The notes beneath the pieces are model-generated. The model ran no database searches. It was not told the DNA's origin and was given only the letters and a program-made list of their open reading frames with translations. From Coriobacteriaceae bacterium (GTDB taxonomy: Bacteria; Actinomycetota; Coriobacteriia; Coriobacteriales; Coriobacteriaceae): a DNA stretch of 64,000 nucleotides. A program made the translations under genes and the position numbers. Location of the stretch: positions 1,862 to 65,861 of the forward strand of contig DAIMBN010000003.1 in NCBI GenBank assembly GCA_036718335.1, written 5' to 3'. Each line of letters begins with the position of its first letter. Position 1 is the stretch's first letter. Positions 24,585-32,482 of this stretch are shown one piece after another.

Positions 24585-24818
24585 GTGCGCGCCTTTCGCT
24601 CGAGGATGTCAATACACTGAATCCTACAACAATGGTAGGTTCATTGCCCATTGTCATACAACGGTGAGCGCCGTCTTCGTGCTGGCCTTCGTGCTGGACG
24701 ATTACGTCGATTGCCATAGATACGGTGGAGCTTTGGGCGCCGGCGGCTTGGCACGCTAGAATAAATCAGTTGCGCAAAGACCGCCCGTTGTGTGGGCAGT
24801 TCATGATAGGAAGTTTCC

Positions 24819-26075
24819 ATGGCATTGCAGTTTACAGAGCGCGAGTTCATCCCCGTGCTGCTCGGTGGCGACATCAACGCCTACTCGGTGGCGCGCGCCT
24901 TCTACGAGGAGTACCAGGTCAAGAGTCTGGTCTTTGGCAAGTACCAGACGGGCCCTGCGTACCGCAGCCAGATTATCGACTACACGCCCAACGTGGATAT
25001 CGATACCATGCCCGTGATGCTCAAAACCGTCAACGGCATTGCCCAAGCGCATGCCGACAAGACGATTGTCCTTGTGGGCTGTGGCGATAACTATGTTGCC
25101 CTCGTGGCTCAGGCCAAGGATGCCCATGAGTTGGCGGATAACATCGTCGCGCCTTACGCTCCCTATAGCATGCTTGAACAGTGTCAGAAGAAGGAGATCT
25201 TCTACGAGCTGTGCGAGAAGCATGGCGTGCCCTATCCGCACACGTTTACCTTTACCAAGGCGATGCTCAATGCCCAGGGTGAGGCGCCTGCCGAAGTGCT
25301 CGACCAGATCGATTTTCCTTACCCGATGATTCTGAAGCCTTCTGACGGCATCATGTGGTGGCAGCACGAGTTCGAGGGCCAGAAGAAGGCCTATGATATT
25401 GCCGACCGCGCCGAGCTGGAACAGGTCATTCGCGATTCGTATGCCAGCGGCTACACCGACGATCTGATCTTGCAGGATCGCGTGCCCGGCAACGACGAGT
25501 ACATGCGCGTGCTCACCAGCTATTCCGACCGCAACGGCAAGGTGCGCATGATGTGCCTGGGCCATGTGCTGCTCGAGGAGCATCAGCCCCACGGTGTCGG
25601 CAACCATGCCTGTATCATTACCGAGCCCAACGACGAGCTCATGGGCGGCGTGCGCAAGCTGCTCGAGGACCTTCACTTTGTGGGCTATTCCAACTTTGAC
25701 GTTAAGTACGACGAGCGCGACGGCTCGTTTAAGTTCTTCGATTTCAACACGCGCCAGGGCCGCAGCAACTACTACGTTACCAACAGCGGCTTTAACGTTG
25801 CCAAGTATGTGGTGGACGAGTATGTGTTCAACCGTCCGTTTGAGCCGGAGTTTGTGACGGCTCAGGACGAGGCCCTGTGGATGGTCGTCCCCATGGGCGT
25901 CGTCGACAAGTACGTCAAGGATCCCGAGCTGCGCGCTAAGGTGCATCGCCTGGACAAGGAAGGCAAGGGCGCCGACCCTTCGTTTATGAAGGGCGACTTT
26001 GTCTTTAACCGCTGGCTGCGCATGTGGCACACCAAGCTGCGCCACTTTAAGCTGTTCAAGACGTATTACAAGTAG
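24819..26075 (+). CDS. ATP-grasp ligase, D-aspartate ligase-like (peptidoglycan side-chain D-Asp addition)
   Basis: 418 aa. The N-terminus EREFIPVLLGGDINAYSVARAF, VRMMCLGHVLLEE and FDFNTRQGRSNYY resemble the Asl-type ATP-grasp enzymes of enterococci and lactococci. An Asp/Glu-racemase-family gene follows directly. Confidence 0.6.
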   Translation: MALQFTEREFIPVLLGGDINAYSVARAFYEEYQVKSLVFGKYQTGPAYRSQIIDYTPNVDIDTMPVMLKTVNGIAQAHADKTIVLVGCGDNYVALVAQAKDAHELADNIVAPYAPYSMLEQCQKKEIFYELCEKHGVPYPHTFTFTKAMLNAQGEAPAEVLDQIDFPYPMILKPSDGIMWWQHEFEGQKKAYDIADRAELEQVIRDSYASGYTDDLILQDRVPGNDEYMRVLTSYSDRNGKVRMMCLGHVLLEEHQPHGVGNHACIITEPNDELMGGVRKLLEDLHFVGYSNFDVKYDERDGSFKFFDFNTRQGRSNYYVTNSGFNVAKYVVDEYVFNRPFEPEFVTAQDEALWMVVPMGVVDKYVKDPELRAKVHRLDKEGKGADPSFMKGDFVFNRWLRMWHTKLRHFKLFKTYYK

Positions 26076-26159
26076 ATGAGCGCGGCGCCCGTCCGGTTTG
26101 CATCGGGCGGGCGCGGGTATGATACGCGCAATTGCGCAAGCGTCACCAAGGAGGCGGCG

Positions 26160-26906
26160 ATGGAAAAGCTGGGAGTTATCGGCGGCATGGGCGCCGAGGC
26201 CACGTCGTATTACTATGACCAGGTGGTGCGTCATACGACTGCTGCCTGCGATCAGGAACATATCGACATGGTGGTGCTCTCCAAGTCGACCATGCCCGAC
26301 CGCACGTTGGCCATTAAGACCGGCGAGCATGCCAAGCTGCTGGCGACCATGAAAGAGTGTGCCCAGGCACTCGAGTCGCTGGGCTGTGCACACATTGCCA
26401 TTCCCTGCAACACGTCACACTACTTCTATGACCAGATCCAGTCGTTTACGAAGGTGCCGATTATCCACATGCCGCGTGAGTCGGTGCGCTATGCTCTGGC
26501 CGGTGCGGTGATGGGGGAGTGCGAGTTCGACCCCAACCTGAGTATGCCGGCCGAGCCGGTGCACAAGATTGGCATCATGGGCACCGACGGAACCGTGGGC
26601 GCGGGTGTCTACGGCCGCGAATGTAAGGCTGCGGGTGTTGAGGTCGTCTATCCCAGCGAGAAACGTCAGAACGATGTGATGTCCCTTATCTACGATGATG
26701 TGAAGGCCGGACGTGAGCCCGATATGGATAAGTTCGACCGCGTGATGTGGGAGTTCGCCCGTAGCGGCTGCGACCGCGTCATTCTGGCCTGCACCGAGCT
26801 CTCGGTGCTGCAAAAGTACCGAGAGATGCCCGAGATCACCCTCGACGCCATGGATGTCCTGGTGCGCGAATCCATCATCCGCAGCGGCGCCCCCTACCGC
26901 CTCTAG
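26160..26906 (+). CDS. Aspartate/glutamate racemase-family protein (probable aspartate racemase)
   Basis: AAGGAGG lies upstream of ATG 26160. MEKLGVIGGMGAEATSYYY plus two catalytic-Cys regions (IAIPCNTSHYF, ILACTELS). Confidence 0.8.
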   Translation: MEKLGVIGGMGAEATSYYYDQVVRHTTAACDQEHIDMVVLSKSTMPDRTLAIKTGEHAKLLATMKECAQALESLGCAHIAIPCNTSHYFYDQIQSFTKVPIIHMPRESVRYALAGAVMGECEFDPNLSMPAEPVHKIGIMGTDGTVGAGVYGRECKAAGVEVVYPSEKRQNDVMSLIYDDVKAGREPDMDKFDRVMWEFARSGCDRVILACTELSVLQKYREMPEITLDAMDVLVRESIIRSGAPYRL

Positions 26907-26965
26907 CTTCCGACCTGTCAAAAAGGGCCAGGTTAATTTTGGTAGGTTTTATCTGGTGAAACAGT

Positions 26966-29522: not shown

Positions 29523-29575
29523 GGATACCTTTCATAGTCATTGGGGACGTTCTTTGGTGGTGGGGCAGCGATGAG

Positions 29576-30148
29576 TTAGTTGAGCTTCAGGGCCTTCTGG
29601 ATGGGCAGATAGAGGGCGCCGACCAGAATGGCGTTAAAGACGGCGGTCATGGCGACGACGGGCAGCATGGCGGCGGCGAGCTCGCCTACCACGCCGAGCA
29701 TGGCCATCTTGATGACCATGAAGATGACGCCGGAGACAAAGGTGGTCAGGAAGGTTGCGACAATAGCGATGACGGGCTTGACCTGACCGTTCTTGCCGGC
29801 GGCGTTGACGATGCCGGCCATGAGCATGGCGGCGATGCCCTCGGCGGCAAAATCGACGAACGGCGAAGTGGTGGTGATCTGGATCACGGCAGCCGAGATG
29901 AGGCCAATAACGAGCGCCTGGCCGATGTTGGGACGAACGACCAGGATGGTGAGGCAGAAGGCCGAGATGATGAACTCGGGGCTGATCATGCCGCCCGAGA
30001 TGCCCGAGATTGCCTTGCCGACGGTGAAGTTGAGGATGAAGCCGGCAGCGAGCAGGATGGCGAGCAGGACGAGGGCACGGACGTCGAGTTTGCCGCGGTC
30101 GGCGGTCTGGACGGTGCGGGGCTGGGCGGCGGTGGTGTTCTGAGACAT
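29576..30148 (-). CDS. trpP: ECF S-component, TrpP-like (putative tryptophan-specific)
   Basis: Start ATG 30146-30148 (MSQNTTAAQ...). About 190 aa with 5-6 TM segments. GGMISPEFIISAFCLTILVVRPNIGQALVIGLISAAVIQITT resembles Bacillus TrpP (YhaG). A Trp-codon leader lies upstream. Confidence 0.65.
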   Translation of the reverse strand: MSQNTTAAQPRTVQTADRGKLDVRALVLLAILLAAGFILNFTVGKAISGISGGMISPEFIISAFCLTILVVRPNIGQALVIGLISAAVIQITTTSPFVDFAAEGIAAMLMAGIVNAAGKNGQVKPVIAIVATFLTTFVSGVIFMVIKMAMLGVVGELAAAMLPVVAMTAVFNAILVGALYLPIQKALKLN

Positions 30149-30225
30149 GGTGAAAATCCTTTCGGAATGGGAGTGCAAGAGAAAAGCGGGGGCGCGTGAT
30201 GCGAATGCGATCGGGCTCGAGATAG

Positions 30226-30257
30226 AAAAAGGCCCCCGGTCGAAACCGGAGGCCTTT
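30226..30257 (-). terminator. Intrinsic terminator inside the trpP leader (attenuator)
   Basis: Minus strand: AAAGGCCTCCGGT TTCG ACCGGGGGCCTTTTTC, located between the leader ORF stop (30293) and the trpP start (30148). Confidence 0.75.
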
Positions 30258-30292
30258 CAATCACCTAGAGCGCAAAAACAGGCGTGAGGGAC

Positions 30293-30361
30293 TCACTGTC
30301 GACCGATCGTATTCGCATCACGCCACCACCAGTTGTTAAGAGACTTCATCGTGTTCTTCAT
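30293..30361 (-). CDS. 22-codon leader peptide with three consecutive Trp codons (not in ORF track)
   Basis: AAAGGAG-N8-ATG. Translation MKNTMKSLNNWWWRDANTIGRQ*, with TGG TGG TGG at 30323-30331. Confidence 0.7.
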   Translation of the reverse strand: MKNTMKSLNNWWWRDANTIGRQ

Positions 30362-30419
30362 GTCGGTGGCTCCTTTCGTGATGCCATGGCGCGGTCGCAC
30401 CTAGTTGCTGTTGCGCTGC

Positions 30420-30425
30420 ACTATA
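30420..30425 (-). promoter_or_regulatory. Candidate extended -10 (TGcTATAGT) for the trpP leader transcript
   Basis: The minus strand reads ...CTTTGCTGTGCTATAGTGCAGCG... about 50 nt upstream of the leader ATG. The -35 element is weak. Confidence 0.3.
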
Positions 30426-30490
30426 GCACAGCAAAGTGCGTGCGGGGAAATCTTTTTTGAAAAGATTTCAGGCGGGTTTCCCGCCGGTCA

Positions 30491-30543
30491 AAAGAGTGGG
30501 CTGAGCGGGCGAGAGGCTGCCATTGCTGCCTTGCCCGCTCAGC
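30491..30543 (-). terminator. Terminator after the C69 peptidase gene
   Basis: 11-bp perfect stem GCTGAGCGGGC / GCCCGCTCAGC followed on the minus strand by CCACTCTTTTG. Confidence 0.6.
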
Positions 30544-30550
30544 TAAGACG

Positions 30551-32482
30551 TTACTCCTTATTGCGACGGTAGAGGAAGTAACCGCCCGCGGAGATGACGG
30601 CAACGCCAGCGATGGCGAATGCGGCCACCATGCGGCCATCAAAACGATCGCCAGTGGTGGGCAGGCCGCCCTTGGTGTTCGTCTTGTTAGTGGTTACCGT
30701 GGTCGTGGTGTCGGACTTGCCAGGCTTCTCAGGCTTGGCGGCCGGCTGCTCGGGCTTAGCGGGCTGCTCGGGAGTGCCAGGCTGCTCAGGAGTGCCGGGC
30801 TGATCCGGGGTGACCGGATCGGTGGCAAGAGCATCCTTGGCGTAGGTGATGGACACCTTGAGGCCGTTGGTCTCGGTGTTCAGGTCGCTTGGGGTAAAGG
30901 GCTGGTCGAAGTTTTCGGCCTTCTGATAGGCGCGCATCTCCTGGAGCAGTGCCTTGCACTTCTTGTAGGTGTTCTCGGTAGCAGCCTTGCCGGCCTTGTT
31001 GGCCAGGGCAGTGCGGCCCTCGGTGGTCGTCTCGGCCAGCATGGCGGCGTCAACTTCCTTGTTCTGCTCGATAAGCTCGTTCTGGAGCGCATCGAGGTAG
31101 GCACGGACGCTGACACCAAGGGTGTCAGGGTTCTCGAAGCAGAGCGAGCTGATGTCCATGAGGACGTAGTTGATTGAGTTCTCGGGCTCCTCGTTGTACA
31201 CGACGTCAGTCTGGTTGCAGTGATCAAAGGAGACGGTCTGATCGCTGAAGTACGGGCTGACCTCAGTTATCAGAGCGGAGTACAACGGGATGGCGACGGA
31301 GTACGCGGCGCGGGAGAGCATTTCCCACTGGATGGTAGCGACTTCGGGGTCATACCCGCGACGAATCTGGAAGAGGTTGATCTCGGTGTTGCGCTCGCTG
31401 CCGATGCAATAAACACCATCAGTGTTCGCGTTGAGGCCAGGGACGTTCTCGCCGCGGTTGCCAAAGGCACGAATCAGCTCAAAGGTGCTCCAGCCAGACT
31501 TGCCAGGCCTGAAGAACAGGGGCTGGATTTCGCTGACCATGGCTCCCTTTTGGTCAGGTTTTCCATCCTTCTTTACTGTGATAATGTCGTAATCTGTGCC
31601 TTCGGTCAGCTGACTACCAAAATAATCGCGGCCTTGCACATAGCGGGACCACTGGTTTACGCCGGAATCGGCGAGGCTCTCGCCATACGTTTGGGCGACA
31701 TCGAATTTGCCGTCAGCGGAGTATTTGGCGAAGCCCTTCTCCACGGGCATGGACTCGATGCCCTCGGAGTGTAGGCAGTTCTCGGGGTCATCAAGGTCGA
31801 CATCGTAGTTGAGGCTCCCGATATTAGGGTTGAGCGACGCGACGTCGTCAGCGAGCTTCATGGCGATCCACTGATGGGCGGAAAGTGTGGCGAACAGCCA
31901 GGTCTCGTTGTTGTCGGCGATGATGATCTGGTCGTTGGTGCAGACGCCTTGATCATCGATCAGTCTGCCGAGAAGCTCGACGCCCTCGCGGGCCGTGGCG
32001 CTCTCGCCCAGGATGATGCTGCCGTAACTGTACTCGCCCAGACCCACTTTCTCATCGATGTGGTCTGCTGCATCGGCCTCCTCGTTATAGGAAGTGCTTA
32101 GCGTGGCAGAGCAGGAGACGCCCTTCTCGTTGATTCCGGCTTCGGAATAGGCGTCGGTGCGACCCATCCAGTTGGAGGGGTGGTCGCGTACATAGCTGTA
32201 ACGATAGGTAGGCTTGTTCGAAGTGTATTCAAAAGCAGATTCAATCGAGCTGTACTTAAAGCCAGGTTCGTGGGCAGGTTCGATGCCGTAGTGCTTAAGA
32301 TAGCGCTTGCCAAAGTCCTCGGCGCGGCCGTAGTACGTATTGCCGTCGGCCGTATAGTTTTTGCCCATGTACATCTGCGTGCAGGCGAGCGCAGATGTCG
32401 GCATGGACATGATGGTTGCAGCTCCAAAGGCGAGGCCTATGCCTAGCTTCTTGAGCGCGTTGACGGGGTGAGTTTTCCTCAT
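30551..32482 (-). CDS. C69-family dipeptidase, secreted and LPXTG cell-wall anchored
   Basis: Signal peptide, then the mature N-terminal nucleophile ...ALA|CTQMYMGKNYTADGNTYYGRAEDF. Pro-rich PGTPEQ repeats follow, then LPTTG, a TM helix and an RRNKE sortase signal. Confidence 0.8.
   Translation of the reverse strand: MRKTHPVNALKKLGIGLAFGAATIMSMPTSALACTQMYMGKNYTADGNTYYGRAEDFGKRYLKHYGIEPAHEPGFKYSSIESAFEYTSNKPTYRYSYVRDHPSNWMGRTDAYSEAGINEKGVSCSATLSTSYNEEADAADHIDEKVGLGEYSYGSIILGESATAREGVELLGRLIDDQGVCTNDQIIIADNNETWLFATLSAHQWIAMKLADDVASLNPNIGSLNYDVDLDDPENCLHSEGIESMPVEKGFAKYSADGKFDVAQTYGESLADSGVNQWSRYVQGRDYFGSQLTEGTDYDIITVKKDGKPDQKGAMVSEIQPLFFRPGKSGWSTFELIRAFGNRGENVPGLNANTDGVYCIGSERNTEINLFQIRRGYDPEVATIQWEMLSRAAYSVAIPLYSALITEVSPYFSDQTVSFDHCNQTDVVYNEEPENSINYVLMDISSLCFENPDTLGVSVRAYLDALQNELIEQNKEVDAAMLAETTTEGRTALANKAGKAATENTYKKCKALLQEMRAYQKAENFDQPFTPSDLNTETNGLKVSITYAKDALATDPVTPDQPGTPEQPGTPEQPAKPEQPAAKPEKPGKSDTTTTVTTNKTNTKGGLPTTGDRFDGRMVAAFAIAGVAVISAGGYFLYRRNKE

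Follow-up and report, generated by a model that had tools for sequence, protein, structure and literature searches.

A putative tryptophan leader-peptide attenuator, with an additional long-range RNA helix, upstream of the trpP-ECF importer operon of Collinsella and related Coriobacteriia

We analysed the region upstream of a predicted energy-coupling factor (ECF) importer operon in a Coriobacteriaceae bacterium, within a stretch of 64,000 nucleotides (contig DAIMBN010000003.1 of assembly GCA_036718335.1; hereafter the 64-kb window). An initial annotation of this DNA had proposed that a leader peptide with consecutive tryptophan codons controls tryptophan uptake by attenuation. Coordinates refer to the minus strand of the window, and the intergenic region from 30550 to 30149 holds all of the leader elements (Table 1). 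The downstream genes had been read as a TrpP-like S-component, a fused EcfA1A2 ATPase and EcfT, and all three had corresponding Pfam or TIGR matches. The S-component aligned with positions 2-168 of the 169 in the Pfam TrpP profile (PF17099) with a score of 23.6 bits, the curated cut-off being 27.2. TrpP was the only family matched in 13 of 13 aligned homologues, and many database homologues are annotated as PF17099. The S-component, the two ATPase domains and the T component are adjacent on one strand and constitute a dedicated ECF module (group I), the order of which is kept in relatives. The window itself is from Collinsella (Coriobacteriia). The nearest genomes were all Collinsella or C. 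aerofaciens, with TrpP proteins 98-99% identical to that of the window, and the Olsenella uli homologue was 79% identical. Collinsella and Olsenella both belong to the Coriobacteriales, in different families.

The predicted components of the leader were all present at the positions given and exceed chance by far. These are a strong Shine-Dalgarno (SD) sequence, a 22-codon open reading frame (ORF), three consecutive TGG codons and an intrinsic terminator, T1, which had been placed about 35 nt beyond the stop codon and begins 36 nt past it (-24.6 kcal/mol). The fold of the whole leader had a z-score of -5.9 relative to shuffled sequences, and its minimum free energy (MFE) structure contained a long-range helix around T1. 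Transcription is predicted from the promoter position to start near 30412.

Table 1. Positions of the leader elements and transporter genes in the 64-kb window
Feature	Position	Strand	Description
Terminator of the upstream gene	30500..30543	-	Precedes the leader promoter
Promoter, extended -10 TGTGCTATAGT	30420..30430	-	TATAGT or TAAAGT at the equal relative position in ~30/35 lineages
Small 5'-proximal hairpin GGUGCGACCGCGCC	30388..30401	-	In the MFE fold; close to the predicted 5' end of the transcript
Shine-Dalgarno sequence AAAGGAG of the leader ORF	30370..30376	-	8 nt ahead of ATG; GGAG conserved
Region 0, SD-AUG spacer GCCACCGAC	30362..30370	-	Complementary to UGGUGGC of the Trp codons
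Leader ORF MKNTMKSLNNWWWRDANTIGRQ, 22 codons plus UGA	30293..30361	-	Sequence reading and conservation
Three tandem UGG (Trp) codons	30323..30331	-	Proposed sensor; in all 64 readable leaders
Region 1	30303..30324	-	Core GGCGUGA (30318-30324) pairs with region 2; the whole 22 nt pair with A'
Proposed antiterminator 5' strand (stop-codon block)	30288..30306	-	B=UCGGUCGA (30299-30306), CAG, UGA (30293-30295), GUCC
Region 2, UCACGCC	30281..30287	-	Pairs with region 1; alternative partners are region 3 or GUGAG at the stop codon
Region 3, AGGUGA	30261..30266	-	Partner of region 2 in the 2:3 hairpin (folds)
Terminator T1, AAAGGCCUCCGG-UUUCGA-CCGGGGGCCUUU plus U-run	30224..30257	-	Stem 30257-30228; U-run to 30224
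A', downstream arm of the long-range helix, CCGAUCGCAUUCGCAUCACGCGCC(CCCGC)	30186..30214	-	Inverted repeat; covariation
U/C-rich tract UUUUCUCUU	30177..30185	-	Directly 3' of A'
TrpP-like ECF S-component, 190 aa	29576..30148	-	SD GAAAGGA at 30157-30163; sole Pfam match TrpP
Fused EcfA1-EcfA2 ATPase, 583 aa	27771..29522	-	TIGR04520 and TIGR04521 above cut-offs
EcfT, CbiQ family, 248 aa	27032..27778	-	Pfam CbiQ, 92 bits

Upstream regions of relatives were collected in two ways: with the TrpP protein, a retrieval that is unbiased for the leader, and by a metagenome search for the pattern of stop-codon block plus terminator in which Trp codons were not part of the pattern. A contig-level genome scan returned only Collinsella (98-99% identical), and the wider diversity came from protein-encoding contigs and the metagenome pattern scan. 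The leader peptide was encoded in 79 of 81 Collinsella upstream regions, with a few N-terminal substitutions, as well as in every readable upstream region (8/8) of further lineages with TrpP proteins that were 77-84% identical, including that of Olsenella uli. In these eight cases the sequence followed the motif xNWWW(R/H)-x4-(I/V/L)GRx-UGA, with WCW in one lineage, and preceded the same kind of terminator; MSRIARTSMNWWWRSLSAVGRS, MFQSMNNNWWWRNSISLGRW and MNRIAMLSNNWWWHGSLTVGRS, each ending at a stop codon, are examples of leaders from relatives. The pattern scan yielded 85 loci with 66 distinct leaders. In all 64 readable leaders (N/S)WWW was in frame and equally far from the stop codon, the last UGG and UCGGUCGA being separated by 16 nt without exception, and the next gene encoded a TrpP homologue (44-98% identity) at nearly all of these loci where it could be read. 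The SD sequence, ATG and reading frame were kept in 35 of 35 representative lineages, and the arrangement was syntenic with trpP in >160 loci. As WWW was universal and TrpP came next in a scan that did not require Trp codons, we conclude that the Trp codons are an obligatory part of the element and that the element is specific to trpP. The initial annotation had made conservation of tandem Trp codons in orthologous leaders its own test, and the results from Collinsella, the eight further lineages and the pattern scan were clearly favourable.

A few leaders differ at the sensor itself. One lineage, represented by two assemblies, has a W-C-W sensor (TGG TGC TGG; L091:33-41, same in L092), and WWWC or WWWH replaces WWWR in L108, L124, L171 and L089:3220-3231. 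Such variants could act as natural mutants for the number of Trp codons needed.

Pairing within the leader was then considered, using figures from the 35-lineage alignment unless stated otherwise. The sequence (U)GGCGYGA just 3' of the Trp codons pairs with UCRCGCC(A) just 3' of the stop codon (helix 1:2). This helix covaries, as pair 134:170 was CG in 22 lineages, UA in 10 and UG in 3, with none unpaired. Overall it was 87% paired, compared to 38-59% for slid controls. Dinucleotide-shuffle z-scores for helix 1:2 were not significant, since region 1 is G-rich and pairs readily with short GC-rich sequences, and they were replaced by covariation counts and by comparisons of self with cross-lineage pairing. 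In a second helix (0:1), UGGUGGC of the Trp codons is matched by its complement in the spacer between the SD sequence and the AUG, which reads GCCACCA or GCGCCAG. Helix 0:1 averaged -14.0 kcal/mol versus -9.0 for the trpP ribosome-binding site (RBS) of the same loci (Wilcoxon p = 1e-5, with lineages that are not independent), and it was part of the MFE structure in 31 of 35 ribosome-free leaders.

The most constrained part of the leader surrounds the stop codon. The block UCGGUCGA-YNG-UGA-GUC was invariant, synonymous positions included, with TCGGTCGA and G-TGA-G as invariant alignment columns. Its glycine codon was always GGT and its arginine codon always CGA, while the intervening residues and the last residue varied freely. 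In the four neighbouring genes GGT accounts for 9% of glycine codons and CGA for none of 76 arginine codons. Because the block is invariant at synonymous sites while neighbouring residues vary, we conclude from the alignment that selection on it acts on the RNA rather than on the peptide. The complement of the block in T1 spans the 5' arm, the loop and the upper part of the 3' arm, with a family mean of -21.8 kcal/mol over 16 pairs and a value of -17.4 kcal/mol over 13 pairs in the window. An example is L097, where GGCUC-C-CGGUU-A-GACCG is the partner of CGGUCGAUCG-U-GAGUC. The terminator hairpins averaged -25.4 kcal/mol across the family, and the T1 stem was 99% paired over the 35 lineages. 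This stem retains a conserved G-U wobble. By eye, the U of the wobble is opposite the A of GAG when the antiterminator forms, as is typical of sequences with two alternative partners.

Complementarity between CGGTCGA in the leader ORF and TCGACCG in the terminator had been noted as a possible antiterminator. The complementarity is present and extends to 8 bp (UCGGUCGA:UCGACCGG, -12.8 kcal/mol in the window). The short motif is part of the invariant block, and in all 35 stalled-ribosome folds described below its partner was the emerging 3' arm. In most lineages the proposed antiterminator is longer, comprising the last codons, the stop codon and GUC, and would also sequester the 5' arm of T1. 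As a separate observation, CGA (30299-30301) lies two codons ahead of the stop, where slow decoding could prolong ribosome residence on the proposed antiterminator strand.

The ribosome was modelled with a footprint of about -15 to +14 nt around the A-site codon, an assumption taken from general ribosome-profiling knowledge. With a UGG codon in the A site, the footprint covers region 1 and ends at least 5 nt before UCGGUCGA. Nascent transcripts were folded, starting at the leading edge of a ribosome stalled at this position, at two steps. Before the 3' arm of T1 was out, 29 of 35 lineages had the 5' arm paired with the post-stop block. Once GACCGG was emerging, its partner was UCGGUC of B in all 35 lineages and in no case the 5' arm. 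At the same step, ribosome-free folds contained the antiterminator in 14 of 35 lineages and nucleation of the terminator in most others.

These results suggest the following mechanism. Transcription would start near the predicted site and the leader ORF would be translated while it is being transcribed. When Trp is sufficient, the ribosome would clear the three UGG codons and reach UGA, where its footprint would hide the stop-codon block (UCGGUCGA-CAG-UGA-GUCC, 30306-30288). With the block hidden T1 (30257-30228) would form, and transcription would end at the U-run near 30224. When Trp is scarce, the ribosome would stall with UGG in the A site and mask region 1, such that neither helix 0:1 nor helix 1:2 could form. 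The naked stop-codon block would then pair with the 5' arm, loop and upper 3' arm of T1 as an antiterminator, permitting read-through to trpP. If no ribosome were present, region 1 would pair with the SD-AUG spacer (0:1) or with region 2 (1:2), which would disfavour the antiterminator. The presence of a terminator belonging to the upstream gene, together with a conserved promoter ahead of the leader, is counted in favour of this mechanism.

Several points weigh against it. Equilibrium MFE folds with ribosome masks kept T1 in every ribosome state. An E. coli trpL control (sequence entered by hand) also retained its terminator at equilibrium, and this approach was set aside as non-discriminating; since the terminator is retained in both systems, the decision must be kinetic. 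The window itself has a weak inner antiterminator helix (13 pairs, z = -1.9, with 14 of 300 shuffles as good), its 5' arm and post-stop block do not pair with each other in the MFE structure, and the 8-bp helix between B and the 3' arm leaves the lower terminator stem free. The antiterminator also receives no support from covariation, because B, the stop-codon block and the terminator are invariant. Loci L094-L178 had the block and terminator imposed by the search pattern, and conservation of these two elements is unbiased only in the protein-retrieved set, i.e. Collinsella and the eight further lineages. The TrpP score lies under the Pfam curated cut-off, and tryptophan is thus a predicted substrate. 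Finally, the whole case is one of sequence analysis, from which we infer the ribosome positions, the kinetic competition, the Trp dependence of read-through and the Trp specificity of the transporter. Taking these points into account, we consider ribosome-mediated Trp leader-peptide attenuation at T1 a likely general mechanism. We assign a probability of roughly 0.78 to the interpretation that it senses charged tRNA-Trp and controls the trpP-ecfA1A2-ecfT importer of predicted Trp auxotrophs, namely Collinsella and related Coriobacteriia. The specific antiterminator, in which the stop-codon block competes with the terminator, is slightly more likely than not.

The leader contains one further conserved element. 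The initial annotation had pointed to near-perfect complementarity between the sequence following the Trp codons and a segment downstream of the terminator, such that a long-range helix would enclose T1. We found this inverted repeat (arms at 30303-30323 and 30194-30214, 88 nt apart) to be 95% complementary over 21 nt, well beyond chance. The 22-mer was unique in the window, with no matches in 100 shuffles, and the duplex of region 1 with A' (-46.3 kcal/mol, z = -5.1) was not equalled in any of 200 shuffles. A' was found downstream of T1 in ~20 of 35 representatives, comprising the Collinsella-type lineages, several sister groups and part of a third group. Pairing is maintained between different sequences, for instance GGCGUGAUGCG:CGCAUCACGC, GGCGCGAUGCG:CGCAUCGCGC and GGCGCGAUUCGC:GCGAAUCGCG. 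Pair 12:59 was UA in 18 cases, CG in 8 and UG in 2, with none unpaired, and pairs 16:55, 19:52 and 25:46 switched on both sides. The true register was 82% paired, compared to 15-50% for slid controls. This covariation indicates that the predicted helix is real and under selection, and a ribosome stalled at the Trp codons would prevent its formation.

A' cannot influence the decision at T1 because it is transcribed after T1. After read-through, in the ~20 of 35 lineages that include the window, it would pair with region 1 and, through its 5' part (CCGAYC), with the first half of B, unless blocked by a stalled ribosome. Lineages without A' tend to have a longer pairing between B and the 3' arm (11 bp, -17 to -19 kcal/mol). 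Several roles were considered and rejected. Control of trpP translation was one, as the predicted accessibility of the trpP RBS was equal with A' free or sequestered. A' also competes with region 0, and predicted accessibility of the leader RBS rose from 0.32 in the terminated RNA to 0.45 in the full-length RNA, while lineages without A' stayed at 0.26. This trend is opposite to that expected if the full-length 5' untranslated region silenced the leader ORF through A' and its flank. A U-rich tract lies right after A' (CCCCGC-UUUUCUCUU) only in the Collinsella clade and L085, and a general second terminator was rejected on this basis, surviving as a clade-specific possibility. In the window MFE UUUUCUCUU pairs with the leader SD sequence, and it is possible that the tract serves as the U-tract of a second long-range terminator or as an anti-SD sequence.

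Any specific role for the helix is tentative at most. Our leading guess, itself speculative, is that the leader has two ribosome-gated checkpoints: T1, followed by the helix of region 1 with A', which would form only without a stalled ribosome, so that sensing would continue past the first decision. A starved ribosome would occupy the UGG codons and the next ~25 nt, and this is the stretch that forms the helix. The two-checkpoint arrangement is doubtful. Since a U-rich tract follows A' in the Collinsella clade, the helix and UUUUCUCUU might there constitute a second terminator with the Trp codons at the base of its stem, again a tentative suggestion. In other clades the helix might act as an mRNA-fate switch, marking the read-through mRNA for processing or altering re-translation of the leader, and this too is conjectural.

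The position of A' also bears on an alternative in which control is post-transcriptional, i.e. stalling at WWW governs mRNA stability or processing through the helix of region 1 with A', and T1 is a constitutive partial terminator. The helix covaries, lies downstream of T1 and spans exactly the stretch covered by a stalled ribosome; the weak antiterminator of the window and the increase in leader-RBS accessibility in full-length RNA are also consistent with this model. However, 11 of 31 lineages analysed have WWW, T1 and the stop-codon block but no A', so that the shared core does not depend on A'. Moreover, A' had no effect on predicted trpP RBS accessibility, and the helix varies in length from ~12 to 22 bp (partly by eye), which is poor for a universal RNase III site. 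We consider the post-transcriptional model improbable.

Three other alternatives were weighed. The leader could encode an arrest peptide of the TnaC/SecM type that senses free Trp, with WWW...GR-x stalling the ribosome at UGA when Trp is abundant and expression being Trp-induced. In favour of this idea, WWW keeps a fixed distance from the stop codon (the third tryptophan lies at -9 relative to the P-site residue), UGA is the only stop codon used, and the peptide retains (I/V/L)GR close to its C-terminus. TnaC W12 and SecM W155/R163 lie at similar distances from the peptidyl-transferase centre, which is a resemblance and not a test. The C-terminal residues, however, are conserved as nucleotides (xTC-GGT-CGA, with codons that are locally rare or unused) and are complementary to the terminator, and covariation links the arginine codon CGY to region 2. 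Neither the last residue (Q, R, L, S or W) nor the four residues after WWWR are constant. A TnaC-type arrest peptide is characterised by a conserved W...D...P-stop sequence with an essential C-terminal proline and by Rho-dependent termination downstream; the leaders have no C-terminal proline, variable last and middle residues, and an intrinsic terminator downstream. If the ribosome were held at UGA, the antiterminator strand would lie beneath it and termination would be promoted. It would also make little sense for an auxotroph to induce a high-affinity ECF importer when Trp is in excess. An arrest peptide is a very improbable explanation.

A trans-acting factor, whether a protein, a small RNA or, in T-box fashion, uncharged tRNA-Trp, could instead bind the leader RNA, the small ORF being incidental. 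The leader does have several conserved helices, and a factor might in principle recognise the invariant block UCGGUCGA...GACCGG. There is also precedent in B. subtilis, in which trpP belongs to the TRAP regulon according to a passage of PMC10327191. Neither T-box nor TRAP, named in the initial annotation as the usual control of trpP in Firmicutes, has a recognizable counterpart here. An Rfam scan of 29800-30800 at E <= 10 gave no Trp_leader (RF00513), no T-box and no other family at threshold, the best matches being terminator look-alikes far below their cut-offs. The T-box model would be expected to pick up a specifier loop, T-box sequence and antiterminator bulge. Our search for a TRAP site, defined as nine to eleven (G/U)AG triplets spaced 2-3 nt apart, found five scattered triplets in 281 nt and no run. 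Furthermore, the SD sequence, start codon, frame, three Trp codons and stop position are kept across lineages while N-terminal codons differ freely, which is the pattern predicted by translation-based sensing. We judge a trans factor to be a far-fetched explanation. The suggestion that the 21-nt inverted arms flanking ~90 bp are a DNA-level feature (a miniature transposable element or a protein operator), with the ORF and terminator in chance arrangement, is extremely improbable, since each arm occurs once in 64 kb, arguing against a repeat of any kind, the arms covary so as to keep RNA pairing with G-U pairs included, one arm lies inside a conserved reading frame and the arrangement is syntenic with trpP in the >160 loci mentioned above.

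Ribosome-mediated attenuation, the interpretation we favour, relates the leader to several known systems. T-box control of trpP occurs in Firmicutes other than B. subtilis. The TRAP- or T-box-controlled trpP (yhaG) and other Trp transporters of Firmicutes share their family (Pfam TrpP) with the predicted importer here, and the rationale would be alike, uptake being tied to the status of Trp or tRNA-Trp through a 5' leader RNA. The sensor is TRAP or a T-box in Firmicutes, whereas here it would be a ribosome translating UGG codons. As in E. coli trpL and other proteobacterial leader attenuators, the Coriobacteriia leader combines a short translated ORF, tandem UGG codons, an intrinsic terminator and mutually exclusive helices that would be selected by the ribosome. 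The pairing within the E. coli trpL leader can occlude its own RBS, and helix 0:1 appears capable of the same. In contrast to E. coli trpL, to which the Rfam scan (E <= 10) detected no homology, the Coriobacteriia leader precedes an ECF uptake transporter rather than biosynthetic genes. The proposed antiterminator strand runs across the stop codon and would pair with each arm of a terminator that is self-contained and shares no strand with it, and the leader has the extra covarying helix from region 1 to a segment past the terminator.

Within the same phylum, Corynebacterium trpL and the trp operons and trpS2 of Streptomyces have leader peptides with two or three UGG codons and GC-rich poly-U terminators (Seliverstov et al. 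2005, PMC1262725). These UGG leader peptides also act by classical attenuation; they differ in that they precede trp biosynthesis or Trp-tRNA synthetase genes, and that study mentions no transporter and does not cover Coriobacteriia. The trpP gene of C. glutamicum has its own start site and a leaderless transcript, and thus lies outside leader control (PMC11995493). A different comparison is offered by rnTrpL of Sinorhizobium meliloti, a released Trp attenuator RNA that acts in trans on other operons (PMC6614838). Region 1 of the terminated leader is likewise complementary to A' on read-through mRNAs, so that a function beyond cis is conceivable, although the complementarity here lies within one transcript and trans action is only a possibility.

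Translation of a leader peptide also controls read-through into transporter genes in the tnaC, mgtL/mgtP and bmrB systems. The tnaC-tnaAB operon, which includes the TnaB permease, is induced by Trp, the nascent peptide sensing free Trp and Rho being blocked. The mgtL and mgtP leaders of Mg2+ transporters use proline codons. To our knowledge, none of the tnaC, mgtL/mgtP and bmrB leaders couples starvation for a cognate codon to uptake of the same amino acid through an intrinsic terminator. The bmrB-bmrCD leader responds to antibiotics (PMC4191407). The initial annotation had regarded a leader-peptide attenuator on an ECF uptake system as unusual, and our full-text literature search likewise yielded no description of a Trp leader peptide upstream of trpP or of an ECF transporter.

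Other features of the 5' region were also noted. The small 5'-proximal hairpin is kept in most lineages with unrelated sequences (alignment, by eye) and may stabilise the 5' end of the transcript. Just 5' of the promoter, the window has an AT-rich perfect palindrome, GAAATCTTTT-CAA-AAAAGATTTC (30447-30469, minus strand). Other lineages have an A-rich 'AACAAAAAAG' tract where the palindrome sits, followed by a TTGCGC -35 element. The palindrome or A-rich tract could function as an UP element or be bound by an additional regulator. Downstream of the leader ORF, the 2:3 hairpin is present in other lineages with different sequences (by eye). A small hairpin at the stop codon followed by UGUUUUU (30296-30284) was rejected as a first terminator, as neither the hairpin nor the T-run is conserved outside the Collinsella-type leaders.

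Several observations concern the neighbouring genes. A second, divergent TrpP-like S-component gene lies between trpP and ecfA in several relatives (L083:4139-4684, L085:4390-4935, L089:4242-4811 and L091:955-1506); the window has a single S-component gene. The upstream regions of the TrpP-like paralogue in those relatives contained no second leader. In the trpP-ecfA spacer of the window, CCACCACCA on the mRNA is a perfect complement of the three Trp codons (29555-29563, plus-strand coordinates). It was rejected as a long-range partner, as it is unconserved and CACCACC is common in coding sequence; the complementarity is probably due to chance. The gene upstream of the leader (30551-32482, minus strand) encodes a C69-family dipeptidase with an LPXTG cell-wall anchor, such that a surface peptidase adjoins the amino-acid importer. 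Two ORFs beyond ecfT, 24801-26393 (minus strand, 530 aa) and 26415-26921 (minus strand, 168 aa), had no Pfam match.

From these comparisons we conclude that the putative leader belongs to an unannotated, conserved family of Trp leader-peptide attenuators associated with the Coriobacteriia trpP-ECF operon, a variation on a mechanism already known. The type of switch is classic; what is new is its use on an importer and the extra long-range RNA helix. The family has two architectural oddities, namely an antiterminator strand that straddles the stop codon and would pair with both terminator arms, and a covarying helix that bridges the terminator. As a cis-regulatory RNA family absent from Rfam it could join annotation pipelines, and its conserved small ORF of 19-26 aa could be entered in catalogues of human-microbiome small proteins as a regulatory leader rather than as a functional peptide. 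The leader also provides independent genomic evidence that this divergent TrpP clade carries tryptophan, its predicted substrate.

Collinsella and Olsenella are common gut and oral Actinomycetota. In an auxotrophy survey they made up 41.6% of the predicted Trp-auxotrophic Actinobacteria (PMC10665431), and predicted Trp auxotrophy fits the relocation of a Trp attenuator to an uptake system. Most likely, the attenuator would let Trp-dependent bacteria switch on Trp import only when Trp is short. If so, an attenuator classically associated with biosynthesis would have been redeployed onto import machinery, and the supply of Trp-tRNA at the ribosome would set the competition for host and dietary tryptophan, a nutrient central to host-microbiome signalling.

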